A stretch of DNA of 62,320 nt, counting the filler, from Rhabdomonas costata (taxonomy: Eukaryota), in the NCBI GenBank assembly GCA_019059605.1. It is 25 parts of 25 records of this genome, joined end to end, with 100 filler letters (N's around TTAATTAATTAA, not from the genome) between each part and the next. Parts side by side here need not be neighbours in the genome. Positions count along the whole stretch, not along the records: positions 32,483 to 34,879 come from JAHMHO010003623.1; 24 more parts are not named here. One strand, 5' to 3'. Under the pieces are notes generated by a model. The model saw only the letters and a program-made list of their open reading frames with translations. It was not told where the DNA came from and ran no database searches. Within the stretch, counting starts at the first letter, position 1. Each line of letters starts with the position of its first letter. The translations under genes were made by a program, and so were the position numbers. Positions 4,901-49,681 of the stretch are shown in pieces.

Positions 4901-5059
4901 NNNNNNNNNNNNNNNNNNNNNNNNNNNNNNNNNNNNNNNNNNNNTTAATTAATTAANNNNNNNNNNNNNNNNNNNNNNNNNNNNNNNNNNNNNNNNNNNN
5001 GCACATGTTTCAGTTCAAAACATCTGCCTTGATCATGAACCACTGAGACGCTTTAGCTT

Positions 5060-5700
5060 CAGAAAATGGCACATCAACAGGCAATGGTTCATATCTGTGG
5101 CGCAGGACCTGAGTGTTGTGGCAGCGATAGACTGTGCACAAGAGCTTGCAGAGACCGAGAGCGCTGGCTAAACTGCATTTACCACGGAGAAAAGGGGCCT
5201 GATTTTATTGCTCAACTCCATGACCTGAACACATTTCTTCAAACTGCATGTGTTTTGTGTCCCACAAGAGTATGGACCACGCACACAAACAGTGCAGTTG
5301 GCTGCAGTCACCTCCGAGTGACATGTAAAGTTGGCATGAAGCCACTCTTTTACTGCACACCAATTAGGTCGTCTGTGGTTTAGCTCACTTTATGTGCGCA
5401 GGACCAAGAGTTATGTGCACGAAATCACATTATGTAGAAGCTGTATTATAGTCATGTATGAGTGCAGTCAAATGCGAACGTTGCAGCTTTGAGAGCACAT
5501 ATCGGAAAACAGCAGTATTCAGTACAAGTGAAAGGCAAATGTATATTGAAGTGGGCAACAACTTCAGTGGTCAATACTGAATCTAGTGGGTAACGCTTTT
5601 AATTCTGCATCTTGTGTAATGCAAAATGAAATTGAAAGCATCAAACATGTCATTGAGAACAGTTAAGTGACGGTTTTGAAAAGACAAAGACATCACCTGG
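5060..5700 (+). mobile_element. Possible highly decayed hAT-family transposase remnant
   Basis: VLCPTRVWTT resembles the hAT LCPTRW motif and upstream AMVHIC resembles the A.y.HC box; AT-rich, frameshifted, no intact ORF. Confidence 0.3.
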
Positions 5701-7532
5701 AGGTACAAGACCGCTTTAAAGTGCTACGTCTGCATGAATAGATATCCGGCTGCGTGTAGCATAACAACTGCACCATGCGTAGCTGCGGTAACTGTAATTA
5801 ATACAACTGCTAAAACTTGGCATCACACACAGAATAACTGAAATCAACCGGAAACGTTCCAGTAACCTTGCTTGATGATCTCCATTCAGCAAAAGATTCT
5901 GGTAGTTCTTGCAAACGACACAAGCAAATACCACCTGCAAGTCCTTTGGAGTATGCTTTCCGTGGAAAAACATCCACAACGTTATAGGCACTTACATCTT
6001 CCAAGTATCCCCAGATGCGGCTGTAGAGTAAAGTAATGGTATAGTGGTGTATACGGTAAGTTTTTGGTTCAGCAAAAAGCTGGTTGTCGACATCTGCCAG
6101 CTGTACCGCACTTCATCGTCAAATCCTGGTTGAATGAGCACGTAGTTTGACGTCGCCATCAAAATTTCCAAAGCCGTGGAAAGTTTTGTGGTGCCGCGGT
6201 TCTGCGCCCGGTGTATACACCTCTACCGCATATGTGGTTCATCCGTCACAATAGCTCACTTGTGTAGTTATAAGTGAAATTGTTCAGGATGTGTCGATGT
6301 GGCAACTCAGTGTGCGTTTCCATGGAAATCCAACGTGAGAGAGAATAAAAATGGCCAGATTATCTGAAAACCACCAATAGGGCAACACAACAGGTTGTCT
6401 CCTCTAATTTCCTCCAAACACTTCTCTTGTGTTTGATTGTAGCGTGCAAAAACAGAGATTATGTGCTCTCGGAGACGTTAATCATTTAAACCAAAAAGTT
6501 GTTTGTTTTTAAAAACTGCGCATTTTCTCCAAAATGAACACTGGCACCACATGTGCTGGAAGTTTGTGTGATATATTACAGTCGTTAATGCCCACAAGTT
6601 TTTATTGGAGTTTAGCAGTTGGCATACTTTAAATATGCACAAAAGGCTATAAATTCTATAAAATAGATCAAAATAGTATTACATGATACAATTTTACTTT
6701 GTATATATTAGTGGACTATTTCAAACAAGTTTGCACATAAAAGACACTTCATCACAAACAAACTCTGATACTGAATTTAAAAATTACAATCTCTACGCAA
6801 TACCAACCATTTACTGACATCTGCTCAATTAAAAATCTAAAACATCGACAATGCGTGCTGTAAAGCTTGAAAACAATCAGTGTGCCTATTTAAAGAGAAT
6901 ATGTATTTCCAAAATCTGATTTTAAATCTGCCATTGGCAACAGAAAAAGTCAAAATTGAATTAATTTGCATTAGTGCAAACACGAGTATGCACGTTATCA
7001 TAATGTAAATCAAGTGGGAAAATGCACAAAAACAATTTTATGCCCTTTCAGTTACAACTACTACATATGAGCGACTAAAATGAGATGCACAACAACTGGA
7101 ATAGAATCACAAAGAGTCTTTGTTGGCGTACCATTGAGACGTTAGGAGCTTCCAATATGAACTATTCGCACTAGCCAATAACTTTTAGAACTACAGTGCA
7201 TCAATGCGCAGTTTAAGCAAGAAGTCTGCAATAGAAAAGCATATTTTTATAACGTTTTCGCATTTAGCAAAACGCCATTTTTATCAGTGTATGTATCGTG
7301 GAGCAGATATAAACCTATGAGCAAGCATATGCACCGTAATTTGCGGATAATGTACATATGTCAGAAAGAGGGGAAACCACTTGACGTCTACACAACACAC
7401 CNNNNNNNNNNNNNNNNNNNNNNNNNNNNNNNNNNNNNNNNNNNNTTAATTAATTAANNNNNNNNNNNNNNNNNNNNNNNNNNNNNNNNNNNNNNNNNNN
7501 NACAGAGAACGCAGGGGGGGGGGGTTTGTGAC

Positions 7533-9805
7533 CTGTGCGGGGTACGAGAACTTCTTGTCGGCCCCCGTGAACCCCGGCATCGCAAGCGCCTTTGCAATCA
7601 CGGCGCTCCAGTCGTAGTCCTGGTACTCGTCCCCAAGGTGGGCCAGCCCGGTCCACCCCACGGGGCCCATCGTGAATAGCCGGTCCGCGTAGCTGGGCTG
7701 GGGCTGGGTAATGCAATTCGTGGTCATCACAATGGACCCCGGGAAGTGAGGGAACTGCGAGGGGCGGTGCGTGCGTTGAGCGGAGAGCTCTAACCGCTGG
7801 TTTTCTGCGCTTGTAAACTGTGAATGTGCGGGAATCTTGTGGCTAAGTATTGGACGAAAACTAGGTGACAGCCAGGGTGCTCATCCTCAGCGACCGCTGA
7901 CGAGCGCGCCCTTGGCCACAGGATCACGACAGCGATCTTCGAAGCCAACGGTGGTGTGAGTTAACACCTGATCGCTGACATGTCGTAACATCCCTTCTGC
8001 CAAACATATCCCGGGACTTTGTCGCTAGCTGCTGTCCCACCAGCTACTCGATCTGTTCCATTGCTGCTCGGTGTGTGCGTGTGTGCCTGCCTGTGCGTTT
8101 CTGATGAATAGATGAGTACCTTTGAATTCACCAACATCGAACTTTCCCGCAAAATCCAAGGAAACTCTCTGAAAGCAGGGCGCACCTCGACGGACTGGCG
8201 GTTCCACGGGCCCCCGAAGTGCCCGTAGAGGTTTCCATAGGCCTTCAGTGCGGGGTAGGCGTGGCACGGCAGCATCTCCCCATGGGTGTACACCTTGATC
8301 CCGGTCTTCGCGGTGGCGCGCAACAGGGAGTCCAGCATCACCAGGTCGTGCCCGGAGACCAAAATGCACTTCCCCGGGGTGGGGGTGGCGGGTACCTCTG
8401 TGGGCTGAGGCGTACCTGCGGTGGCGGAGAAAGGAAGGTAGGGATTCCTGAGAACTTGCTCAGGCTGTAGGCTGCCTGATAGAACCCAAGATTCACGTTG
8501 TTGTGAGAGGCACGGCACTACTAATGGTCCAGCATGAGGACATCTGCGGAAATGAATTGCATCCCTACTTTGCTAGCACTTTCCAAACAGTATCAAGAAA
8601 TGGGAAAAGGCTGGCCATGCGCCATGAGCTTCACACATCTCAAAGTTACTCTCTAATCCAACTAACATCGTGATAACATCGTGGCACAAAAAAGTCGTCG
8701 TATTCATCCAGATCAACAGTCTTTGGTCCGGGAATCCCGTTTTGTCAAGAACCGTGAACACCCCGGCAGCCAATCACAACTTGAACAACGACAACGCCAA
8801 GGAGATAAAGACAGCACCCATTGCAGAGAGAACTCAGCGCACCAAAGCTGCTGTTGCACTCGTACAGGAGCTGCATCACCCGCACATTGGTGCTGCCACA
8901 GCGCATGCACGCGTCCAGCATCTTTCCCATGTCCGTCCTCTCCGGGCTGGCCAGCAGGGCGCAGGCCTCATTGAAGAACTGGTACACCGCGGCGTCCTCC
9001 TTGTTCCGTCCCCGGGCGTGGTCCGCGTAGGCCGCCATTCCCTTTTGAGAATCGCACCTCAACGGCACTTGCGCACCACAATCCACCAGCACCTTTCAGC
9101 CCAAGCTTTGCGCCTCCTTCCTGGATTAACTTTGCGTGTATCACTGTGCGTCCGTTTGTTGCAAAAGTCTAGGCGCACTCCGGATACGATTAATTCACTG
9201 TGCAGACAAGAGCTCCAGAAAGGGTGAGAACTAGGCGAACCGAATTCCGACATCGAGCTTATTATGTTAAGTCCATCCTGGGCCTACACCTTCCAGAATA
9301 ATTTCTACCGCTTCATTGGGGATAACCTGCAAGATGGAACCACCACCAAAACGCCTGGCCTGGACAGCGATGCAAAAATGCAGAGTTACCTGCCCCAGAG
9401 TGATCATTTTCAGATTGATTCAATAAACATTTCCATGCGGTCATCCAGTGGTACAGCACTGCCACAGGGACTCCATCCTCTGTATCGTTTCACGGTACAA
9501 AAAGACGAAGCTGGCATAGAACTGCGAAAGCATCCTTCAACAAACAAAGCGCAAACTGATCCCTTCGAGGCTAAAAAAAAACAGTCTCAAGGCACCTTCA
9601 TGCCGTACATCAGCAGCTGTGCCAGGCTCTCCGCGGCCTCGTCGGGGTTCTGCTGGAACTGCTCCAGCACCCCCACCATCTTGCCCTCCTGGACGAGGTC
9701 CGCCTCCAGGCCCTGCAACAGCACGGACTCCTTCGGCGGCAGCAGAGCAGGGCGCTGCACAGGCACTCCTTTCGCTGCGCAGGCCGCTTCGTACGCCGCC
9801 CTTGC
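7533..9805 (-). CDS. hcp: Hybrid cluster protein (prismane / hydroxylamine or NO reductase), internal fragment; exons 9805-9596, 9041-8843, 8415-8186, 7754-7533
   Basis: GT-AG exons join in frame: LLMYGMK/GMAAYADHA...; GKCILVSGHDL; IKVYTHGEMLPCHAYPALK; FPGSIVMTTNC; YADRLFT..PVGW.G - diagnostic HCP motifs including His, Glu and Cys cluster ligands. Confidence 0.95.
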
Positions 9806-24135: not shown

Positions 24136-24993
24136 GCGCGTTCTTTTTGGATGAATTGGCACAGGGAGATGAAATTCAGAGAAGGAGGGGAAGAACACCG
24201 TCATGTGTGAGGGCAATAATGATCTTATTAAGACCCCTCCCCCTCAGATGCACTATTCAGGACTCTATTCAGTTGAATAGTGAAAAGTGCTCAGCTGAGT
24301 AGTGGTACTACTCAGTCTTTATTCTTGAATAGGGGGAGGGGGAGGGGTGGTGTCACATTTTCACACATCTTAAAGTGGTGTGTGGCGACATACACACATT
24401 CACACGAGACGAAAAGGGAGAGGGAGATGCCCAGTTTGCAGAATCGTGCTGATATTTTGAACGCATAGAGAAAATCAACAAAATCATCAATCGTGCGGCT
24501 GGAAATCCATCCCAAACGTTGCCCTCGAAGAATGCATCTGCAGAGCGATTTGTATTCTGTACAGGTTGAGCTGGTCCTGCACCATTACGTGGGATGGCGA
24601 TTTCCCTTACAGCACTATCCCTTCCTGAACTTGCCTCCGGTCGATGTTCATCTCTTTGTTTTTCCTGTGACGCGTCCATTTGGCTTTTATCACGTCCACC
24701 GTCCTTTTGAGTTGTGAAAGCGGTGGTTGGTTTGCCCCCATGTTATTTCTTTGAGAGTTTTGCTCTCCTCGAGCGAAGAGCGAAGAGCGTGGTTGGGCAG
24801 GTTCATGCATGCTCGCTTACGATGAATTTATTGCATCCAATGTGTCGTGACTGGAGAGGCCTGCAGTATATGTGCAAAATCCCCAACCCCACCNNNNNNN
24901 NNNNNNNNNNNNNNNNNNNNNNNNNNNNNNNNNNNNNTTAATTAATTAANNNNNNNNNNNNNNNNNNNNNNNNNNNNNNNNNNNNNNNNNNNN

Positions 24994-26822
24994 GAGGGGG
25001 CCTTTGCGGTGGAAGCTGTGGAGAACCGCCGATCGGGGCCCGGGGCGAACATTACGGGAAACAGGTTGAAGTCGATCGAGGCCCTGCTGAAGGACTCTCG
25101 GTTCGACCGCAGCGGGTTGGGCGGGGTGCACCGCTGAGAGGAGCTCTGCGGGACCTCCAACGGCACCGGGCTCAGGGCTGAGGGCTGGGGGCTACTCTGG
25201 GAGCCTCTTCCCGATAACCGGGAGCCATCCCGCCTGAGCATCCCCGAGGGAAGGAAATGGGTGTACGGCTCCAGGCACCTCACCATGCCTCGAAACGCCC
25301 GCTGCAGGCTGTCCAGCTCCAACGAGGCCGTCTCCGCCAGACTCACCCCGGTCAGCTGCATCTTCGACACCATATTCATCTGCAGCGAGAGCTGCCGCAC
25401 CAGAAACACGGTCCGCAGCACAACCCCCGCAGTCAGCGCTAAGCATCCCGCCAGGACGCACACCGCGGTGCCTACAAACACAACCTCCGAGGACCGCACC
25501 CCAGACGTGGCCTCGGTAGTTAGCTCCATGGTCAGGTCCGCACTCTGTGAAAGGCTGCTCAGGGTCCCCATCAGGCCGACCATTTTGCTCACCGAGGAGC
25601 TCCCAAGGCTCAGCACTGCGGTGAGGTTTGCAGCGGCAGAGCTGACTATCCCTTGAAAGTCCGCCTTTGGGGTGAGCTGGCAGGCCAGCCACTGCAGGCC
25701 TCTGCGGTGGAAAACCAGCGTGCTGTACAGGTACAGCGTGCCGTTCCATGAGAAATCCGAAAACTGCGTGGTGACATTCTCCAGAGCTCCGGAGGTCGAC
25801 GTCAGGTCTCCCACACAGGCTTGCACAAGAGGGCTAGGGAACATCTCCAGGGTAAAGGGAACCAGGGTTTCCGCAGCGGTGTCGTCGATAAACAGCGGGA
25901 GCTCTGGAAAGGTGTGGGCTACCACACTGTGCTTACGGGTGAGATCTACGACAAAGGCCGAGGACTGCGGAGAGACAAGACTGCGGTGCAGGGCACTACA
26001 CAACAACTCCATACTGATGTCGGCACACAGAACGCCCATCAGGCTGTTATTCCTTGTCGTGGTTAAGCACCGAGTGTACATCAGGACAGGGGACACCCAT
26101 AAGCTCACATAGGACTCCCATAGAGCCCCGGTGGCGATTAGAACTGCAAGGTCGTCCTCGTCGTAGTAGAAGGAGCTGGCGTTCACGTCCTTGCTGACGT
26201 ACACGTCACGGCTCACCCTAGGGCCATCTTCCCAGCAGACGTACTTTTGGTCGTCGCCCATCGCATACAACTCGCAGCCGGAATAGTTCCCCCAGCCACA
26301 CTCCATGAATTTCCCCTCCGCCGTCGGGACGGGCTCGTCGTAATAAATGTTCTGAATATTCGGGTGGAACGTCAGAACTTGCCCCAAAAAACTCGCCATA
26401 AACGCCACCAGCGTCAGCTGCGGGGAGTCCAAGTCACAGGACTTGAGAAGCCCAAACTCCCACGCCTCGTGCATGGCGTGCGTGGCACCCTCCACCGCGT
26501 CCAAGCGGCGACTCACTGCGGTGCCCATCTGCTCCATGGCTCTGAGGTGCATCTGCAGGACCAGCGTCTTCAGCTGCACCAAAACCTCTGCAGTGGCCTG
26601 TTCGCTCGCCACGGATCCCCGCTCGGAACTGCTCGAGGCATTCATCGCCAGCCTGATGGACTGCTGGGCGACAAGTGTTGTCTCTCGGGACAGGCCGACC
26701 ACGTCGCCTGCCCAGTCAAGAACCGCGAAGGCACAAGCATGAAACAGTACCGCAAACAGCACCCCGGGAAGGACGGTGAGAACAATGACGGCGATGGCGG
26801 CAAAAAGCAAACGAACCCTCAT
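24994..26822 (-). CDS. Intronless TM-dCache-TM-HAMP sensor protein, 3'-truncated (output domain not in contig)
   Basis: N-terminal TM; ALWESY...LMGVLCADISMELLCSAL...SAFVVDL...VVAH and GLQWLACQLTPKADF (dCache_1 pattern); second TM; HAMP-like VRQLSLQMNMVSKMQL...ELDSLQRAFRGM..LEPYTHFLPS. Confidence 0.8.
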
Positions 26823-27820
26823 CTCTCAGGATCACAACATAAGGTCACGAATACCTCGCCAAAAAAAACGAAGAAAAAGCTGCATATCAAACGAAAGTCT
26901 TCTTACGCTGGTAAGCACCTGCAACTTCCATAAAAACAGATACGACCAAACATGCTTACCTTTCCCTTTCCGCAATCGAGGACACTGGACGCAAAAATGT
27001 GTTCTCATAACACCAGTTCTCACCGGCAGTAATATGATGTCATATTCAAATTAAGTACACCACTGTGGTATGACTGCCTTTCACCTCGAGTTCGAAGTGC
27101 TGCTGCTACTTTCTACTTCCGTGACAAACTCCCACAGTTTATATGACACAGCAGAATTTTGAGAGAAATCAAAAAGACCAACGCAACGACATGTCCGAAA
27201 CCATTACAACAAGTCGCCCCCCACCATAGTTTCGGCTTTCCAGAGAAGACAGTCTCAAGCAAGCGACGATAAAAACACTGACTTCCCACGTGCTACTTTA
27301 AATCTGCACGCCGAAAAGGGTATTCCAACCTTTCTGCACAACGCCTCATCGCTCAAAAATGGACAAAGCGGTGTTCCACAAACAGCAGCANNNNNNNNNN
27401 NNNNNNNNNNNNNNNNNNNNNNNNNNNNNNNNNNTTAATTAATTAANNNNNNNNNNNNNNNNNNNNNNNNNNNNNNNNNNNNNNNNNNNNAAAAACCGGT
27501 GTGTGGGTGGTTTCTCCATTTCATGGGAGCGTTCATCTGACTCGTCCAGTGTTAGCTACCACAGACTTGTTTTGTTGTGGACGTCCTCGCCCTCAAGGAT
27601 TTTGACGCCGGAAAAAAGCACTAAAGAACTTAATAAACGTAAAAGAAAAGTAAAGAAAGTAAAGAAAGGAAAAGAAAAGAAAAAAAAGAAGGCACAGTTA
27701 TGTTGCATGACCGGTGTTGCTGCCTTTCTATGTCGAAGCGAGCGAATGGGTGTGTGGAATCCATAGGACAGAAACAATGGGAACAAAGGGAAACCATCAC
27801 ACCTCCCGACTCCGACATGC

Positions 27821-29814: not shown

Positions 29815-29986
29815 CTGTTGAATCGCAAAAGGGAGCGCGCGAAGCCCAGAAAAGAGCTTCACCACTTCTAGCACACCACCCCCCNNNNNNNNNNNNNNNN
29901 NNNNNNNNNNNNNNNNNNNNNNNNNNNNTTAATTAATTAANNNNNNNNNNNNNNNNNNNNNNNNNNNNNNNNNNNNNNNNNNNNTG

Positions 29987-30131
29987 TGTGAGCAATGGAA
30001 ATATGTAATTTGTGAGCAATGACACAAATCATCCGAAATCGACAATCTCATATGTGATATTACGATAACGATCTGTCAATTTCGGATGATTTGTGTCATT
30101 GCTCACAAATTACATATTTCCATTGCTCACA
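29987..30131. repeat. 53-bp inverted repeat at contig start (29987-30039 / 30079-30131) containing a duplicated tgtgagcaatg motif
   Basis: Direct reverse-complement match. Confidence 0.85.
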
Positions 30132-32482
30132 TGGTAATTGCGCCCATTCATGTTGTGCATCAAGTTGCCCCTGCGTTTTCCCACTTCTGTACCATCTACG
30201 TTGCGATGTTGCGCAGCTTGTAGCGAATAGTGAAGTGTGCTTTCATGTGGTATGCTTGCGGGGTCTTCAGAACAGTTTCTTCAAGCGTTTTTTCAAGTGT
30301 CTTGATAACTATTTTGGAAAAGCAGGCTCTTTCTCTGAATTGGGCAAAAGTCTGGATTTTGAGTAATGCGTTTATTGTGTTCTGAGATCTTCCTGATTTT
30401 ACGCTTCACTCACGTGCCTTTGAGCAATGGTATAACTGTAGCTCCTATGTTGGAACAATATGGTACACAATGTGCCAAACATCTGTCAAGTCTCGGTGGT
30501 TTTATAGAGCGTCTGTGTTCAATTGAGTACAACCATACATAACTTCTTCTGTTTTATCCAATTACATATTTTTAATGGAAACAAACATGCAAGCTTTCTA
30601 TTTATTTTCAATGACTCGGTATCTTTAACCTCTGCGTATGGATACAGTGGAGTTTATTGCTTATGATGCATCCACTGTGAGTTTTGATCGCTATCACATT
30701 TACGTGTTTCTTTTTGGATGCAATCCGTCTTTTCCGAGCACACATTGGAGATGCTACTACAATGGTTACATTACGGAGCACTTACACCTATGAGGGCTAC
30801 TGAAAGTACCACTTTGCTGCTTTATTATAAATGTAGCACACTTTCTTTGTCCCACCTCACGGATTAGTGAGACGCAGTTGTGGCCAAAAGTTAAGGATTT
30901 CGCTGTCACATTGATTTATGTGAAGATTTGGTCTTTACATCTGATTTCCAGGTGTTTGTTTTTTGGAGTCAACTTGTTTGCAAATTGAAAGCAGCACCAT
31001 TACATGATTGATGCAGACACGAAAATGTGCAAGGTAAACACGTTATGTGCTACGCATATAGCTTTGGAAGACAGTATTTCACATTTACGCGTGACCACAT
31101 GCGTCTTGACAGTCTCCCAGACTACATGTCATGTCACCCCTGTTCCTAAGATAAGGAAAACTCGGAGGTGTGGTGCTTTGCATCAGTTTGGCTTGAGAAG
31201 ACTGTGTGGCCGTGTATACAAACGTGTTTTGTTGGAATATCTCGATTTCTTAGTCACCCTTAATATTCACAGCTATCCTTCGTCATTTTCTCCTCACCGT
31301 TGGGCCATAGAGTAAAGTAATTCCGGTTATGTTGTACGTTTGCGTTTCCTATCCGAGCAATATACTGCTTATATTTTTAAGCACACGTTTATGCCTTCGC
31401 TCTTTAAACCACATATCCTCAGCGACACTGGCACGCACTTCCACACTTACATCTGTAATTACGATCGGTATTTACATAATTGTGGTTCTTCCAACGTAAT
31501 AATACGAGCATTTTTTGGGTAGCGGTGTGATTTTGGTGTTCAGCTAAATGTAGATTGGCCTCGAGATCCACCACACGCTTGTTATCTATTACTATTGCTC
31601 TCCGCTTTTGAATGCCAATGCCAAAGTGTCCACTGGTTGGTTAGATCAAACATTGGATCCCAAATGACTATGTCAGTGTGTTAACGCAGTCCAACATGCT
31701 CCTAAAGGCTCTGAACTTCCTCATTTCCACGTTTTTTTATTCATTTAGTTTTATATATCAAATACTCAGGAACTATTTAGTTAAATTTGACACCTAACCT
31801 ATGGGTCATTTCTATATAAAAGTGCACACACAGCGGCACGGACATTGTGGTTTTAGAAAATTGTTTGTGTCAATTAGTACGTACACTGAATAAAATTGAT
31901 TCAAGATTCAATGTACCGGTAGAATTCTCATATTACCCCGAGCAATATGAACATACAATGGGAGCAGAAACAAAAAAAAGAGACATCACATCACATCACC
32001 GGTTCGTCCGTTTCTTCATACAAATGTTATACTACAAACAGTACACTTCCAGCGTTTAATATGATCAGTGTTCATGGCTGGGTCGTCACCATCTAGTTCT
32101 CCTGCTCTAATGTCAGATTGTAGGTTAGAAATGCAAAAAAATCTATTCTTCCGCACCGGAAAGACAATGATCGAGTGGGACGCCCGGAGGTTTGAAAGTA
32201 CAGGCACCTCAGATAGGCGGACCGCATAAAAGCCACCCCCACGCGTTTAGGATCTTGGGCATCGGGGTAACCGCCACGTGCCAACCTTTTTGAGGAATGA
32301 GCTCCGTCCGCGTGGGATAAGGCCGCCGCAGATGGACGAGGACAACGCAGCGCCTGGATGCATAACGGGTACCACACCAACCNNNNNNNNNNNNNNNNNN
32401 NNNNNNNNNNNNNNNNNNNNNNNNNNTTAATTAATTAANNNNNNNNNNNNNNNNNNNNNNNNNNNNNNNNNNNNNNNNNNNN

Positions 32483-32636
32483 TGTGTTGGGGGTGGTGAT
32501 ATGGAGATTTTGCGTCTCTACCGTCACGGGACATATCATCGGCATGACTCTCTGGTTCGAATATGCCGAGAATAACACGGGAAACCCATCTGCGATCATC
32601 ATGGACTGCTGCGGTGATGACCTTTTGACCCAAATG
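32483..32636 (+). CDS. Probable upstream exon of the BLUF gene (unknown domain)
   Basis: Open frame VTGHIIGMTLWFEYAENNTGNPSAIIMDCCGDDLLTQM then GT; phase with the next exon is ambiguous. Confidence 0.35.
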
Positions 32637-33024
32637 GTTGTGACCGTGGTTCCGTGTCGCCTTTAGGAATCCCGAAGTTTTATTCTGCGATTGTCGTGAG
32701 CGTGGACCGTGTGAATGGGTGAGTAGGTGGGTGCTTATGGTGATTGAGTTCTGCCTCCCACTGGGCTTTTGGATATTCGAGAAATCAGCGGCCCCTGAGT
32801 AACGTTTCTCGCACGCAGATACGCGACAAGTTTTTTCATAACACTAAAGATGCGTATAGAACACAGTTCCACGTTATAAACGCAAAAGGTAAAAAAATGT
32901 GAAAAAAATGAAGGAATCCATTTTTGATCATCATGTTTGCCTCAAGACCCCGCATTACCCTGATCGGAACCCTTTTCATGTCAGTTTTGACTTCCGTTTA
33001 GTTTGTTTTCCCTTTTGGCATAAG

Positions 33025-34854
33025 ATCCCTCTTGGGAGATGGCCTCCAGCGACGTGGCCAGCCTGGAGGGCCCTTTTAGCCTCACATATGTCTCCAAGTG
33101 GGCTAAGGGGCTTAGCAGCGCGGATCTCTCGGCTCACATCTCTCGGTGGGAGGCCAAGAATGGGCAGACCCGGCTGACCAGCTGGTTGCTGTGCTCCTGT
33201 TTACCTGAAAGGGCCTTCTTTTTGCTCCGCATCCATCTCGTCATTGTTTCCCGTCGGCAAGGATACCCACGTCCAATCGTTGAGTTTTCATTCCTGTATC
33301 ACTTTCTGGCTACGCACTCCGCTGCTGTACATTGGCTTTTTCCTTTGCTTTTCTTCCAGGCAAACTGTGAACATCGCTTTTGTGGAAGTGTTTCTGCCAA
33401 GGGCAAAAGAAATCGTTGAGTATTGCCTTAAGAGTTCATGAATCGGACAAAAAAGGCGAAAAATTTGAAGTCAGCTACTTTCTGTTTGTATAATCCTGGA
33501 TGAATCACTGACTCGTTGGTGGCTGGGACATCGCGAAAGTCTTAGCTCCGTTGGGGCACTTTTGCTCTGCAGGACGGGGTTGTTTTAATTTCGGGGGATT
33601 CACAGCCACCGTTCATGGGGTGGTCGCGCGCGTGGGGTTTGCTCCACAAAAGCCAATCTGTCGACGAGATTGCACGGTTTGCACTGGTGCAGTAACCCCG
33701 TACCTTTCAGGTTGATCATCACTGAAGTGGGGGCGCATCGACAGTATGATTGGCGTTTCGTCTGCCTGAAAGACCGGCGGTTGCCTTTTTGCAGCTTGGT
33801 CACGATGGAGGAGGTGGTGGTGCAGACTCTCGAAGGTCCCAGGGCTGTGGTGGAGGCCACCTTTGAGAGGATTCGCTCCAGCCCACTTCATCAGGACCAC
33901 ACCGTGCTCAGCCAGGTGGGCCATTTTTGATGAATGCCCGTTGCTCAGCTTTGCATATGCACACCTAAAAACAGTTTCGTACTCGCCCTGACAGTGTGTC
34001 ACGGGGAACCCTTGTTTTGCCCTCTCTCACAGTTCGACTCCTCCGTTTTATTCTCGTGGAAGATGGCCTGCTCTGTTCACGCAGCACCCATGGCGCGGTG
34101 ATCTTAGGGGCCTCTTGTATTTCTTTTGGAGGGGAGGCGTAAAAGGTTAGCACCGCTAAACGCGTAGAAGTTAACGGAGCGTCCTCCCATGGCACTTCCT
34201 AGCCCATCCGCCCCCTCCGGCCGCGCCGCGAATTGCCTCCACCCCTAAAACGGCCCGGCCCTGTCCCATTCGTCTGTCAATGCCCAGCAACGACAAAAAC
34301 AATTCCAAAATTGGGGCATGCACTAAGATAGATCCCCTCTAATTTCTCCTCCTTCTCACTCATCCGCCTTTGTCTCACAACGGGCAGAGAAGCATCGAAG
34401 ATCGGGGCTTCCCAGGCTGCAGCCTTCAGTGGCTGCCCATCGAGACCACGGACTACACGTACCCCTTGGTCCAGGTACTGCCCTTGCTGCCCTTGATTCT
34501 TCCCTGCCGCGGTGCCCTCTGCTTGAATTGCGGGTGCGGTCGAGAAAGCTTGCAGCTTTCGTTCCGATTTTCCCTGTTGGTATCTGCTTCTTTTTCCGTG
34601 GTGGAACCCCACCCATGGGTTTCGGGTTGGAACCCCGCACAAATTCGCTCCCTTTCTCCTCTATGCCGCTCCTGTCCTCCCCTCCCCCTCTTTCCTTTCG
34701 TGACCTTTGGATACGTTCGTTTTGCTGTGCTCCGGCGGGGGTCAGGTCTTCTCCGCGATGGGAGTGCAGCTGGCGAAGTTGGTGCAGTTCTGTCCGCTCG
34801 GGGTGCGAGCGATGGTGGTGCGCGGGGTTGACCCCTTGCGGGCTCCTCCTGCCG
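33025..34854 (+). CDS. BLUF domain plus PAC-type linker (photoactivated adenylyl cyclase-like protein), partial; exons 33025(or 33039)-33184, 33795-33915, 34388-34474, 34746-34854
   Basis: Spliced (GT-AG, phases 2/0/0): FSLTYVSKWAKGLSSADLSAHISRWEAKNGQTRLTSCLVTMEEVVVQTLEGPRAVVEATFERIRSSPLHQDHTVLSQRSIEDRGFPGCSLQWLPIETTDYTYPLVQVFSAMGVQLAKLVQFCPLGVRAMVVRGVDPLRAPPA. It fits the BLUF consensus (L.Y.S...N...T..L.....Q.LEG...V.....RI....H...R.F) followed by the P..V.....G..PL helix linker of PACs. Confidence 0.85.
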
Positions 34855-34986
34855 GTCTCTGCCAGTCATAAACCCACCCNNNNNNNNNNNNNNNNNNNNN
34901 NNNNNNNNNNNNNNNNNNNNNNNTTAATTAATTAANNNNNNNNNNNNNNNNNNNNNNNNNNNNNNNNNNNNNNNNNNNNGTGTGGT

Positions 34987-35784
34987 GTGGATCTGGTTTC
35001 TGTCACAAACGGAACGGCATGGGGCCGCGCCTCTCGGGCGTCGCCCGTGTTTTGCTTCCCGTGGGAGTTCGCCTTCGACGTCCCCTCAGGAAGCCAGCCG
35101 ATCCTCCTGCTCCTGCCCTTGCAGCAAACCGGGACGTTCCACTACAACTACACCCTAACCCGCAGCCTTCTACAGCAGCACTACCACCACCACCACCCCA
35201 GCAAGGCCAGGACCCAGGGCCCTCTTTTCGTTGCCCTGCACCTGCGGCTGGGGGACGTCCTGATCTCCCGGGGGTACCGCTGGAAGTACACCGGCCCGGA
35301 GTTCTACCTTGCCGTGGTCGGGCTGATCCTTGCGGCCATTCCCCCCTCCTGTGGCACTTTCAGGATCTTCACGGATGAGCCTACTCACAAGGACGTGCGT
35401 GCTCTGAGGGCGGGCATGCTGTCACGTTTTGGGGTTACCCTTACCGGGGCGCTCGCCAAGAAACCCGCAGCGGTGGCTGCGCGGCAGTCAATGGACTTTC
35501 ACCAGCTTGCCACCGCGGATGTCTTGGTGGTAGGTACCAGTGGGTTCTCTAGACTGGCAGGCGTGCTGTGCCGTGGGGTGATCCTGGCTCCACCTCTTGG
35601 GGTGCAGCCTCTGGAAGGCCTATCGGGGGTGGTCTCGTTGCCGCGAAGAAGACTGCGCGCTACCCCGTCAGTGTTCGGCAGGGTGGTGAATGACACCCTC
35701 AAAGCAGCGTTTGGGAGCCGGCTGCGGCAGTGTGAAGCTGATGCTTCGGTGAGGAAAGGGAACGGGTCATCCGCGGTGGGGTAG
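34987..35784 (+). CDS. O-fucosyltransferase-like / GT11-like glycosyltransferase, 5'-truncated, intronless here
   Basis: VALHLRLGD (GDP-fucose-binding HxRxGD), FRIFTDE, DFHQLATADVLVVGTSGFSRLA. Confidence 0.75.
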   Translation: MDLVSVTNGTAWGRASRASPVFCFPWEFAFDVPSGSQPILLLLPLQQTGTFHYNYTLTRSLLQQHYHHHHPSKARTQGPLFVALHLRLGDVLISRGYRWKYTGPEFYLAVVGLILAAIPPSCGTFRIFTDEPTHKDVRALRAGMLSRFGVTLTGALAKKPAAVAARQSMDFHQLATADVLVVGTSGFSRLAGVLCRGVILAPPLGVQPLEGLSGVVSLPRRRLRATPSVFGRVVNDTLKAAFGSRLRQCEADASVRKGNGSSAVG

Positions 35785-44520: not shown

Positions 44521-46037
44521 CTGTGCAAAGGCAAACTACAGGGTAGCCAGAGCAGGCTTGACTACGGGTTGACGGCTTCAAGACGGCTTGGTAACGCCTT
44601 CAAATACTCATGCTGAAAGACAATTTCATAAAACACCCGTGAGGAGCCGCTTTGTATTTTTACACCTCACTCAACAGGGACGAAAGAAAGAGGAGGAAAT
44701 CGGCTTGAATCAGTCACTCATGAATCGCTTTCTCAGCCACGTGCTGCTACTGTGGATTGTTTCTTATGCTTCGTGCGGCGCTAAGGGCATACGCTGAACC
44801 ATACGCGTATCTATCCTACTATGTGGTAGCCACAGTGGAACGTAGAATAACCAACAACANNNNNNNNNNNNNNNNNNNNNNNNNNNNNNNNNNNNNNNNN
44901 NNNTTAATTAATTAANNNNNNNNNNNNNNNNNNNNNNNNNNNNNNNNNNNNNNNNNNNNGAGACTTTCGAATCAGTGCGTTCTTACCTCATTGATTTCGG
45001 CCCAGTGAGCAGTTGTGCTGTTGGATTTGTGACCCCAATTGGCACATTCGGCAGTCTGGCGAATATCCACACATTTGGTTTTGGCGCATTTTTTCCCGTG
45101 GTGGCATATCCGAGTGAGCGGTGAGGGTAGTGGTCAGTTCTGCTTCACAAACACACTTTCAAAAGCATGCAAGTAGTTGGATTGTATTCTCTGATGTATA
45201 CATTTTATTTCCCGCATAGCATCGAGGAGAGGGAAGGAGAGAGAAGGCGAGATGCCCGGGTAGGATTGGTGGTAATTTGTTGGTGTTAGGTTCCGTTGCG
45301 AACCTCGAGAATGGGCGGTGTGGTCGTTGTGCAGTGGAGTTAGGCTTTGGGGTTCTGAGGTGAACGGGCATCACGGGTCCCGTTCAAAACAAAAAAACTT
45401 AGGCGGCATGACCATGCAAGGCTAAAAAAACCAAACAAAAAAACGTGAGCTTACGCAATGCAAGGTTCCGGCACACATCATTGTGGAATGGAAAAATTCA
45501 CAGGGGAACGGGCCCCTATGATTCCAAGACTCTCGTATGGAGTGTCCACAATTGTTTTGGGACCGCGGCCCAAGATCCCAGTTGTTTATCGTAGTTTCAT
45601 TACTTCTTTGCGTTGCGCGGATCAGGTACACATGTCAGATGTAATTTTCGCCAATTACTGGAAAAACATTGGAGAAGCTGACTTTTGTCCAACTACTCTA
45701 CCAGTTCCAGATGCCATAACTGATCCTTGCCATGCAGCCAGAGGCTGGAGTAACGAACCCCTCCCCCCATTTACGGGGTGACCCCCTAACCATTGGTTTA
45801 TGTCCGGCGGTTTGCAGAGGAGGATATGGATGAGTGCTTTTGGAAGAATCCCAGAACTAAAATTAGCGGTACAGTCACCAAAAACTGAGCAATCCTGCCC
45901 TTTAGCTGGCTCTTTTCTCTGCACTTCTCTTGGCAAAAACTTCCGGTTTTGCTCTCCTTTGCGTCCCATTTATAGATTCCTGCTCTCTCTCCTTCATAAC
46001 TTCGACATTTTCACCCGTTTTCTCTCAGCAATAACTG

Positions 46038-47141
46038 ATGGTGCGCCTTATCATCCTTGTCAGTATCATTCTGTTGCATTTCCTTGCGCTCGCCATTCCG
46101 GCCCCAGACTTTGAAATGCAAACCTGCACCTTCGCTGGTAGGTCCTATCCATGTCCGAACATCTTTGACTGGATCTTCTATAACCAAACCTATCCCGACG
46201 TACGTGCCTCCTCACAGCAGCAGGCTTGGCACCACTGGATGACGTTTGGCATTTCCGCTGGTCGCCGCTGTCACCCAGGACCCCCTGTCGTGAAGATTAT
46301 AGTGATGACCAAAAACCAACCCGTCTTGCTTGACTCCTGGATAACGTATCATTCCCACGTGTTTGGTCCAGAAGCACTGTACATTATTGACGGCAGCCCG
46401 AGGCGGGGATGGGTTCGGCCCAAAGGGCCTCCGTGGATATTCTATTTCAAAGCGGATTTGCACGACCTAGGCCTCATGAATGCCATTAATAAACTGGCGC
46501 GAAGCCTCGCTCACTCCTGCGACTTTCTTTTGAAGCTGGACACGGATGAGCTGGTTACTGTTCTGGGGAAGCGCAGCAATGGAACCTACTTTTTCGACCC
46601 TGGGAGTGTTCGTCGTCATTTCGAGAAGCTGAGCGTAACCGGTGGTTTGTATGGAATTTACCAGTGGGCAATTAGCGTTCCCGGTCCTGAGCTTTGCGGC
46701 CGGGACCCCACCTCTGCCACAAGGTTTTCGCTAAAATTTGATCCCGTCGTGAGTCCCGCTAAGATTTTCCATCTAGCGTGGACCTTTGATCGCGTTGACG
46801 TTGGTGCCCACTTCGGTTCTACTCTTCCTGAGTACAAGTTCCTCCTAATCCAAGACTCTGGTCTTGCGCTGGCACACTACCACTACCGCTGCTACGAGGA
46901 CGTCATGCGTGCCGATCGTACCGTTATGCTTTCACACCGGTATATTCCCTCGAACGGAGACGTGAGAACGGCCATCACTGCCCTGGAAGACCTTCTGAAG
47001 GGGGGTGCGACCCCGATCAGTTTTCACAAGGCCAGACGCTATCTCGAACACCTGAAGGACCCCGTGGGCTCTCGTGAAAAGTACTACCGCGAGCACGGTG
47101 GTACTTCCTTCAGCATTCCCGAAATCGCAGAGCTTTTACAG
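46038..47141 (+). CDS. Type-II membrane/secreted GT-A (GT2/GT92-like) glycosyltransferase; single 1.1-kb exon (probable donor at 47142)
   Basis: Signal anchor MVRLIILVSIILLHFLALA; FDWIFYNQTYPDV.....AWHHWMTFGISAGR module; IIVMTKNQ..LL..WI.YH...FG....YIIDGS; LLKLDTDE (DxD); HYHYR. Confidence 0.8.
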
Positions 47142-49681
47142 GTGGCTTCTTTTAGAATTCTAGTACTTTGCACTCAACAGGCTTTGCGTTCATTAACTGG
47201 AGCCTATTGCGCTGGAATTTGTGCCCGTGTTACAGATTATTCAGGACCCTTTTCGCTATTTCAAGTTCTTTTCTTAGGTCGACCGTGTTTTGTTTCTTGT
47301 CCTTCTTTGTTCTATTTCTTCTGTTATTGCTTTAAGCGGCTCCATGGAACGGCNNNNNNNNNNNNNNNNNNNNNNNNNNNNNNNNNNNNNNNNNNNNTTA
47401 ATTAATTAANNNNNNNNNNNNNNNNNNNNNNNNNNNNNNNNNNNNNNNNNNNNGTGTTTTTGTGCGATAGAAAAGGTAATGCTTTCACGTATGCCCGCTG
47501 GTTGGACCTACGATATCACGCAAACAACTGACAATGGTGCTATTGTGCCCTCCGGAGCACCCAGGCTGCGCATATCTTGGGTTAGGCTTAGTTTTCCTTT
47601 TAATCGTTGCTCTCCTTCATATGTGTTTGTGTGTTTGTGTGTTTGTGTGTGTGCGTGCGTTTGCTTTTCACCGACATGCACTAACGCGAACGAACAAGCA
47701 CGACTGTCCCGAAGTCAACTGAAGAATGGCTCACAACAAAAGTGGCTCTCGTCTCTTTCTATTTTGTGCAAGCCACCAACGCTTCAACGCATAGAGCATT
47801 CGTGTCTCTTTCCATTGGTATTGGCTTCTGTTCTGTTCGGCGGCTTTTATGAAAATAAAACTGCCTGGTTTCGCTCTGCCTTCCCTTCATTGCAGTGTGA
47901 TTTACGACAAGTCTTTTTTTCGGCGGTCTTCCCTATTCGAAGCCATACAAGGGGAAGGGGGTGTCTCGCTCGGAAGGTAGGCCTGTGTATCGGTCTTCCC
48001 TTTGTTTCCTTTGTTTGGTACCCTCCCCTCTCTTGCTCTGTCAGCTCCCCAGAGGGCCAGGTCGCTTGGGTGTGCCTCTGGAGAGGACCCCCAGACGGGC
48101 TCGCCGCAATTCCCCCGAGGCTCAATCACTCGTTTGAAGCCCCCGGTGCCCCGGCGTGAGGACTCCAACAACAGCCGCAATGGGATGCTCTGAGAAGCCC
48201 AGACTCATCCAGATTGTCGTTTTGTTTTTTGTCTGTTTTTTGTTTCATCTTCGGTTCCGTCGTGTGATTGCTGAGAGGGCTGCGCGGGGAGCTGACTCGG
48301 CTGAGTTTGTGGCTTGCGTGTTTTGAACTTGTGCCTTTCCATCTCATCTGGCTCTTCGAAGAAGCACGTGCGACAGCTCTGTCCATCGTACAAATTGACA
48401 TGGCATCAATTTGGCATGGACTGAGACGAGGATGGAGTTATCCGCCCCACCTTCCACCCCTTAACATAGCTATCAGTGCAAATATGCCAGGATTTCTCTC
48501 ACCCGCTCACCCTCCCCGGAGTTTTTGTGGGGGGGGGGAGGCATAAAATAATTTGGCTATAGCAGCGGAAGGAGATGTAATTGCAATGTAAAATGATGAG
48601 GGTTAAATCGCTTACTGCTTTGATTAGCATCCCAATTTATGAAAAGTCCCCTAAGTTCTTCCTATCGTAGGGTCGGATCCTTGCACGCAACATCCCGCAA
48701 CTCTCCAACCAGCAGCAGCTCTGTGAAGCCAGCCGCCTTGATGTACTTTTGATACCGCATCTGTGATGCGAGAGTTTTTTTCTCAGCTGGAGTTTTGTGG
48801 AGATCCCCTTCCTCAAACCACTGCAAGGATGCGGGTGCACATCTTGTCAGTGCCAGCCTCGCTGTGCTGTGCTATGTTGTGCTTCGTATTTTTATAGGCG
48901 CTCTCCTGCACCAACGCGGGTGAAAGATGGGGGTGTCATTTTTTCTGTCTCTTGGACGCTCTTGGCACTGCTTTGTTCGTGTGCATACTCCCCCGGAAAA
49001 AGGAAAGTTTTTTCATCGTGGGCGTGTGCTCGAGTCCAGAGGTGCTTCCCATCGCATGGCGGAGTGAGCTCACCTCAAATCCTCCGCTCTGTGCCAAAGG
49101 GAGTGGTTTCTGGTTTGTTCCATTTGCGGGGGAAGTACTGTCACTGCGTTGAAGAAGAACTGCGATTTTTCTTGGGCGGATGGCTCTACACACGGCAGTG
49201 CAAACCGAACAAGGAAAGCTGACGGTGTGAAAAAAAAGGGGGGGGGCGAGATTATTGGCGCTGGGCTTCACCGTGGTGCTCGGTGGATAGGTCGCAAATT
49301 TGGCATGACGTTAGACGGGAATTCATTCGTTGTTTTCGGCCTTTTTTGCAGTGTCGTCCAAGTTCTTCGTGATTTTATGCGTTTGACAACACGAAGCTGG
49401 ACGTACGAATCGCAACTTTCCCGTTAACATTATTTGCAGCGTTGCTGCAAGTGAAGCGCAAAGTTGGAGTATCACGGCATGTGGAGGTCTTATTGAGAGG
49501 AAAGCAAAACGGCGTCATCCCTCTCTATATCAGAAAATCACGTGTCACGACAATTTTTCGCATCGGCATCGCAAGTGATTCCCCTTAATTGCTACGCTAC
49601 CGGTGTGCGCATTACGCGGCTTCCGGATGTAGATGCTTTTTACCCATGTCCTTTTTTCGGCTCCGTTCCTCACACGCTCGG

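Follow-up and report, generated by a model that had tools for sequence, protein, structure and literature searches.

A spliced gene of the colourless euglenid Rhabdomonas costata probably encodes a BLUF–pseudo-cyclase protein derived from photoactivated adenylyl cyclases

Does a colourless osmotrophic euglenid, which is not known to have an eyespot, encode a light-activated cyclase? The question is raised by a short contig of the Rhabdomonas costata genome assembly, contained in a stretch of 62,320 bases of joined DNA that was analysed as a whole (hereafter, the window). A preliminary description of this locus had proposed a hidden spliced gene, starting at position 33025 and coding for a BLUF domain followed by a linker of the type found in photoactivated adenylyl cyclases (PACs), and had anticipated a cyclase domain beyond the contig end, with a possible use as an optogenetic scaffold. 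In Euglena, PACs serve as the receptors for phototaxis and photophobic responses, and they are widely used optogenetic tools.

We found that exons 1 to 4 of a nuclear euglenid gene lie on this contig, and that a public protein of the same species, here referred to as P0003, follows these exons and continues beyond them. The encoded protein is probably a PAC-derived BLUF–pseudo-cyclase and not a working light-activated cyclase, a reading adopted because the proteins nearest to it are pseudo-cyclases and because P0003 itself has already lost the one catalytic position visible in it.

A spliced BLUF gene cut by the contig end

The four exons (Table 1), once joined, give 463 nt that are open over 154 codons plus one base. 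Searching a collection of 5.8 billion proteins with exon 2 alone retrieved P0003 as the sole match among longer proteins, with 100% identity over the exon; P0003 is a 198-amino-acid EukProt protein carrying the collection label Rhabdomonas costata. The spliced 154-residue peptide shares 152 of its 154 residues with the corresponding part of P0003 (residues 1–154); the two exceptions are P12L and L136P. The three junctions 33184/33795, 33915/34388 and 34474/34746, put forward in the preliminary description, are therefore confirmed by an independent model, together with a splice donor after position 34854, the support for the junctions coming from this single public protein. Indeed, reading through past 34854 gives ...RAPPAGLCQS and then a TAA stop codon (34869–34871), where P0003 continues instead with ...RAPPAAAAGRF.... 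The contig thus ends within the gene: it covers the 5' portion, and the 3' two-thirds would lie outside it. As to the start of the gene, coding begins at the ATG at 33039 and not at 33025, as had been proposed, and the 40-residue peptide quoted earlier for this locus agrees with the window sequence. According to a passage of the genome paper (PMC8219788), the proteins published for R. costata were predicted from a transcriptome, and P0003 presumably stems from that set.

The HMMER comparison with the Pfam BLUF family (PF04940), which had been suggested as a check of the domain assignment, gave a clear positive result. P0003 scored 64.6 bits (cut-off 25), its residues 12–102 covering positions 1–91 of the 92 of the profile, and the 40 residues of exon 2 alone still reached 29.9 bits (profile positions 41–77), with no Pfam match for exons 1, 3 and 4 when each was taken alone. 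The first exon contains the BLUF strand β1 with Tyr17 (33087–33089) and also Asn41 (33159–33161), exon 2 contains the BLUF core VVQTLEGP with Gln59 (33823–33825), and in exon 3 Cys100 (34418–34420) and Leu102 (34424–34426) stand at the positions usually occupied by Trp and Met, respectively. Exon 4 carries the PAC-type "handle" FCPLGVRAMVVRGVDPLRAPP (34788–34850).

The conservation of these positions was evaluated on 168 BLUF domains from 151 proteins aligned to one hidden Markov model (P0003, 150 listed representatives and one cluster mate). The flavin-pocket residues Tyr17, Asn41 and Gln59 of P0003 fall in columns with Tyr in 165, Asn in 166 and Gln in 162 of the 168 domains. The column of the β5 Met, where P0003 has Leu102, holds Met in 139 domains, a gap in 17, Leu in 9, Ala in 2 and Ile in 1, and that of the β5 Trp, aligned with Cys100, holds Trp in 135 and Cys in 5. 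A passage of a preprint on OaPAC describes how, after excitation, Tyr6, Gln48 and Met92 rearrange first and Trp90 then replaces Met92 (bioRxiv 10.1101/2023.09.05.556344). P0003 thus differs from OaPAC and bPAC in both β5 residues (Met to Leu and Trp to Cys) and, judging from the aligned residues, the electron/proton-transfer pair of its BLUF domain is intact and the β5 switch that relays the signal is altered.

PAC-type linker and cyclase homology in the relatives

When all PDB chains were searched with phmmer, OaPAC ranked first for P0003 (E 9e-13 to 2e-11, from residue 9 or 14 to residue 159) and bPAC aligned over residues 14–172, well past residues 104–109, where the alignments with the BLUF-only proteins Tll0078, AppA and BlrB approximately end. 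A PAC profile was assembled from eight proteins of 335–369 amino acids with BLUF and Guanylate_cyc domains (Pfam was checked for P0014 and P0020, and cyclase columns are present in all eight). By hhalign, P0003 matched this profile over residues 12–156 with a probability of 99.0% (E 3.7e-18), the segment FCPPGVRAMVVRGVDPLRAPP of P0003 falling on YTQPAVRRIIESGADPLRLAP of the profile. The AlphaFold2 model of P0003 had a mean predicted local distance difference test (pLDDT) score of 79.5, with 86–97 in the BLUF domain and 73–81 in helix α3 and the handle, and it matched OaPAC and bPAC over 143–148 columns (root-mean-square deviation, rmsd, 2.9–3.7), compared with 93–110 columns for most BLUF-only entries.

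OaPAC (4yus, 5x4t, 9f1w) and bPAC (5m27) share with P0003 the collinear order of BLUF domain, α3 helix and handle, continued in its relatives by the class III cyclase fold. They were the best PDB matches both by sequence (P0003) and by fold (P0003 and its relative P0010), and have the BLUF Tyr, Asn and Gln in common with them, at an identity of just 17–25%. The short BLUF proteins (TePixD/Tll0078, 1x0p; Slr1694, 2hfn; BlrB, 2byc; AppA BLUF) show the same fold and the same pocket Tyr, Gln and Asn but, unlike P0003, have neither a PAC-type handle nor a cyclase-like continuation. Helix α3 and the handle of P0003 can thus be assigned, from sequence, profile and fold matches, to the PAC type.

To place P0003 among known proteins, 1.84 billion representatives were scanned with HMMER, and 649 proteins were found at E ≤ 1e-3, nine of them, including P0003, at E ≤ 1e-10. 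Long proteins, matched over two stretches each, make up most of the top matches. Pfam analysis of 21 matches, P0150 and P0005 included, detected BLUF in 21/21 and Guanylate_cyc in 12/21. Among the matches listed, only P0006 (563 amino acids, aligned to residues 11–198 of P0003) and P0010 (546 amino acids, residues 10–196) reach the end of P0003, with identities of 31–32%; P0153 belongs to the same cluster as P0006, and these sister proteins measure 546–581 amino acids. Two of the other matches are of interest for their labels: P0005, labelled as the diplonemid Rhynchopus euleeides, is a PAC-like protein with two BLUF and two cyclase domains, and P0015, labelled as the phagotrophic euglenid Ploeotia vitrea, combines a BLUF domain with a degenerate cyclase.

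A maximum-likelihood tree was calculated from 68 rows, namely P0003, 47 BLUF segments of 32 matches of at least 300 amino acids and 20 of the 118 shorter matches (every sixth by id), with 160 of 330 alignment columns kept. P0003, P0010 and P0006/P0153 form one clade (ultrafast bootstrap 99; Shimodaira–Hasegawa-like approximate likelihood ratio test, SH-aLRT, 91), and the wider placement of this clade among PAC-type BLUF domains has supports of 73/9 and 74/92. P0003 lies outside both the first-BLUF and the second-BLUF groups of the two-domain PACs. To these belongs PAC α/β of Euglena gracilis (P0150, UniProt P84739, PAC alpha-like), with the order BLUF-cyclase-BLUF-cyclase and a BLUF domain and linker that can be aligned with those of P0003; both would be part of the same broader lineage of euglenozoan BLUF and cyclase proteins. 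A passage of the genome paper on E. gracilis mentions photosensor cyclases that combine a double cyclase domain with either one or two BLUF domains (PMC6366073). Unlike Euglena PAC, the sisters of P0003 carry a single BLUF domain and a single cyclase-like domain each.

P0003 runs for 44 residues past exon 4, and 42 of its residues would belong to a cyclase-like domain. In the family alignment, and not on its own, this tail falls on the opening strand and helix of the cyclase-homology domain of the sister proteins (…FLVAFRL…, …LTRLLNLFTAL) and stops within the latter conserved block, which goes on in P0010 and P0006, thus suggesting that P0003 is a truncated transcript model. Pfam detects BLUF alone in P0003, P0006 and P0010, with no Guanylate_cyc (PF00211) match even at E up to 10. 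Profile comparison by hhalign went further: a profile of P0010, P0006 and P0003 matched the PAC set at 99.9% probability (E 5e-33) over 323 columns spanning BLUF, linker and cyclase, and its cyclase part alone matched at 98.0% (E 2e-13) over 151 columns. When P0010 and P0006 were reduced to a BLUF-free profile, covering their cyclase-like and C-terminal parts, 12 PDB matches were obtained at E ≤ 10, 10 of which were PAC cyclase domains, the best being the isolated bPAC cyclase 5mbg (E 0.0048). The AlphaFold2 model of P0010 (mean pLDDT 65.9, with 80–94 for most of residues 150–320) matched full-length OaPAC and bPAC (E 2e-24, about 367 columns) and 5mbg with a target TM-score of 0.87 and an rmsd of 2.6. 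Profiles and models therefore both indicate that P0006 and P0010 carry a class III cyclase-homology domain after the linker. P0003 is a relative of the PACs in both architecture and ancestry, probably descended from the BLUF-cyclase (PAC) lineage.

Past the cyclase-like domain, P0006 and P0010 have a C-terminal region of about 200 residues that distinguishes them from OaPAC and bPAC; the R. costata gene differs from these also in being eukaryotic, with at least four spliceosomal-type introns. An EF-hand reading of this region was considered and rejected: P0006 and P0010 gave no EF-hand match, the BLUF-free profile hit no EF-hand structure and the P0010 model has a pLDDT of 46–58 there. A sub-threshold EF-hand_7 match was seen solely in P0082 (20.3 bits vs a cut-off of 30), and the resemblance to EF-hands that is visible by eye in the relatives is kept as a weak lead.

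Catalytic positions and competing readings

In class III cyclases, a Lys and a Thr act on the substrate and an Asn and an Arg act in the transition state. In OaPAC, part of a published account shows, metals and ATP are bound by Asp156, Asp200 and Glu279 from one chain, while its partner chain contributes Asp270 and Asn273 (PMC11533990). The column of the first metal Asp is occupied by Arg165 in P0003, by Arg156 in P0010 and by Arg167 in P0006, in the MAFFT alignment as in both hhalign alignments; hmmalign leaves it unaligned in P0006, P0153 and P0010, again with no Asp. In the other catalytic columns of P0006 and P0010, Lys is replaced by Gly, the second Asp by Ala or Thr, Asn by Thr and Arg by Trp, and the Thr column holds Ala or Thr; P0010 thus keeps 0/6 catalytic residues and P0006/P0153 1/6, the Thr. 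The difference from OaPAC and bPAC concerns the first metal Asp in P0003 and, in the relatives, also the second Asp, Lys, Asn and Arg.

The same columns were surveyed in 38 cyclase-domain rows drawn from the matches of P0003. The nine single-domain rows of bacterial type have the Asp, Lys and Asp in 9/9 (P0085 being partial). In the two-domain proteins, the first cyclase domains have the two Asp in 0/13 and 1/13 and Lys, Thr, Asn and Arg each in 12/13, and the second ones have the two Asp in 11/12 and 12/12 and lack Asn and Arg in 12/12. The residue sets of the two domains are complementary, and euglenid-type PACs would therefore form one active site from two halves. P0006, P0153 and P0010 have neither half (0/3 at five of the six columns, Thr in 2/3), so that the P0003 family, unlike Euglena PAC, appears to keep neither part of the site. 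A comparable condition is found in P0015, in which Thr alone of the catalytic set is kept, and in P0082: as in the relatives of P0003, the BLUF domain of both is followed by a linker of PAC type and by a cyclase-like domain that lacks the catalytic set. They lie outside the 99/91 clade and share 23–24% identity with P0003, and P0082 has also lost the BLUF Gln.

These results allow the earlier proposals on the continuation of the gene to be evaluated. The PAC-type linker after the BLUF domain proved to be real, as indicated by the alignment with OaPAC and bPAC, the 99.0% profile match and the fold match over about 145 columns. The cyclase domain expected past the contig end was borne out as far as a cyclase-like continuation is concerned, the tail of P0003 being aligned with P0006 and P0010, and found no support as regards catalysis, the catalytic residues being lost in the sisters. 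A working photoactivated cyclase, and with it an optogenetic scaffold, is unlikely in view of Arg165, of sisters devoid of five or six of the six catalytic positions and of the missing Guanylate_cyc match. For P0003 itself, we infer the loss of activity from these relatives.

The strongest alternative is that of a split PAC, in which P0003 would lack the metal Asp, keep the half-site made of Lys, Thr, Asn and Arg, and share an active site with an Asp-bearing domain located on another polypeptide. The first Asp is absent in 13/13 first domains of two-domain PAC-like proteins, with Asn and Arg each present in 12/13, so that Arg165 alone does not make P0003 useless; moreover, its linker is fully PAC-like and its top relatives by summed bits are proteins with two BLUF and two cyclase domains. 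However, the proteins of the 99/91 clade that reach the end of P0003 are also without Lys, Asn and Arg (Gly, Thr and Trp, respectively), and they contain no Pfam cyclase domain at the permissive threshold given above. This makes the split arrangement rather unlikely, albeit the best placed among the alternatives.

It is less probable still that P0003 is a complete short BLUF protein of about 200 residues, with a PAC-type helix and a vestigial cyclase stub, acting through protein–protein contacts. Its length of 198 amino acids would fit, a longer R. costata model was not found in the protein searches, and 118/151 BLUF-bearing proteins among the matches listed, P0003 itself uncounted, are shorter than 300 amino acids. 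Yet the 42-residue stub would not fold alone, the sisters reach 546–581 amino acids and, above all, a complete protein is disfavoured because P0003 ends within a conserved block. Finally, kinship with the ciliary BLUF-like type of Chlamydomonas DYBLUP/MOT7 and animal TEX47, a possibility that a flagellate with a BLUF-like domain and weak TEX47 matches in some PAC-type proteins might invite, can be practically dismissed, since the best sequence, profile and fold matches of P0003, linker included, are PACs. An identity with DYBLUP/TEX47 was rejected because the Pfam TEX47 family (PF24787) did not match P0003 even when E values as high as 10 were allowed.

Several observations weigh against the BLUF–pseudo-cyclase reading. 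Taken alone, the tail of P0003 has no Pfam match and its last 80 residues have no PDB match by phmmer; the hhalign alignment of P0003 alone with the PAC profile ends at residue 156, and the tail reaches a pLDDT of just 53–69 in the AlphaFold2 model. The input alignments of the P0003 and P0010 models included true PACs, which can pull models towards the PAC fold. The relatives appear distant, at the identities reported above, and few: a word-index search for further members with P0010 found P0010 itself only, and a search with the BLUF-free profile of P0010 and P0006 recovered those two only. In the BLUF domain, Leu in place of the β5 Met looks unusual (9/168) and is no proof of a defect. Lastly, Arg165 resembles the corresponding residue of Asp-less but functional first domains, and, judged on P0003 by itself, the protein might still supply one half of a site completed by a partner.

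If the BLUF–pseudo-cyclase reading is correct, flavin binding, photochemistry and any regulatory role of the protein can be outlined as follows. The BLUF domain would still bind flavin and sense blue light via Tyr17, Asn41 and Gln59, and the signal would travel along α3 and the handle to a cyclase-fold dimerisation module unable to make cyclic AMP (cAMP). The dead cyclase fold might then behave as a light-dependent scaffold or regulator, for instance by pairing with another cyclase-homology domain or with some other partner.

Setting of the locus and meaning for euglenid light sensing

The window consists of 25 short contigs of about 2.4 kb each, separated by 24 spacers of the form N44-TTAATTAATTAA-N44. 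The sequence TTAATTAATTAA was seen 24 times, flanked by 44 N on each side and with a step of about 2.5 kb (linkers at 2445, 4945, ... 59874). Because the window is made of joined contigs, the "genes" adjoining the BLUF gene in it are not its genomic neighbours. The rest of the gene was sought on the other 24 contigs by tblastn with P0003, P0006, P0010, P0082 and P0015, with nothing significant (best E 0.15).

Table 1. Features of the BLUF gene and of the contig that bears it, in window coordinates.
Feature	Position	Strand	Description
Contig bearing the BLUF gene	32483–34879		N runs and TTAATTAATTAA linkers at both ends
Exon 1, coding part	33039–33184	+	Residues 1–48 and two bases of Cys49; identity to P0003
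Intron 1	33185–33794	+	610 nt, GT...AG; junction backed by P0003
Exon 2	33795–33915	+	Last base of Cys49 and residues 50–89; 100% identical to P0003
Intron 2	33916–34387	+	472 nt, GT...AG
Exon 3	34388–34474	+	Residues 90–118; BLUF β5, then start of helix α3
Intron 3	34475–34745	+	271 nt, GT...AG
Exon 4	34746–34854	+	Residues 119–154 and first base of Ala155; helix α3 and PAC-type handle
Intron 4, first 25 bases	34855–34879	+	GT donor at 34855–34856; cut by the contig end

The G+C content is about 0.5 in most contigs. Those at 4991–7390 and 29941–32340 have 0.40, vs about 0.44–0.59 in the other 23, and may be of different origin, e.g., organelle, repeat or contaminant. On another contig, a 203-amino-acid open frame (7961–8572, minus strand) matched the Pfam Prismane/CO dehydrogenase family (hybrid-cluster protein) with 72.3 bits; it is a fragment covering profile positions 186–271 of 513. 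Eight long stop-free frames were also seen on other contigs, at 24942–26825 (minus strand), 46035–47405 (plus), 34981–35784 (plus) and five more of 214–292 amino acids; none of the eight, those of 627 and 456 amino acids included, had a Pfam match at E ≤ 0.001.

As a protein model, the sequence was already public and unannotated, and the interpretation is the new part. In the genome paper on R. costata (PMC8219788), the main text is silent on BLUF, photoactivated, adenylyl and adenylate cyclases, on photoreceptors and on phototaxis. A literature search pairing BLUF with degenerate, pseudo- or inactive cyclases found none, and one on BLUF or heterotrophic euglenozoan genera gave no BLUF mention among the matches listed. 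PAC has been placed, in a passage of a 2009 review, in phototrophic euglenoids and trypanosomes, with a probably bacterial origin (PMC2781859). With P0003, the labels carried by PAC-type proteins include a primary osmotroph in addition to a phagotrophic euglenid and a diplonemid, and those of P0005 and P0015 thus suggest that PAC-type modules are not confined to phototrophic euglenids.

For applied purposes, the protein would be a poor prospect as a cAMP-producing optogenetic scaffold. For the biology of the group, a wider reading can be proposed, which we regard as possible and somewhat doubtful: P0003, P0006/P0153 and P0010, perhaps together with P0015 and P0082, might constitute an undescribed BLUF–pseudo-cyclase family, whose members would regulate other cyclases or flagellar proteins under the control of light and perhaps with calcium as a further input, and the PAC module might have been present in Euglenozoa before the green plastid, diversifying into non-enzymatic light sensors. 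The finding bears, in this respect, on the age of PAC-type receptors in euglenids, which may have arrived together with the plastid or have pre-dated it. If true, the BLUF–pseudo-cyclase of R. costata would represent a natural experiment, in which the coupling of BLUF to a cyclase fold is maintained without catalysis in a non-photosynthetic organism.

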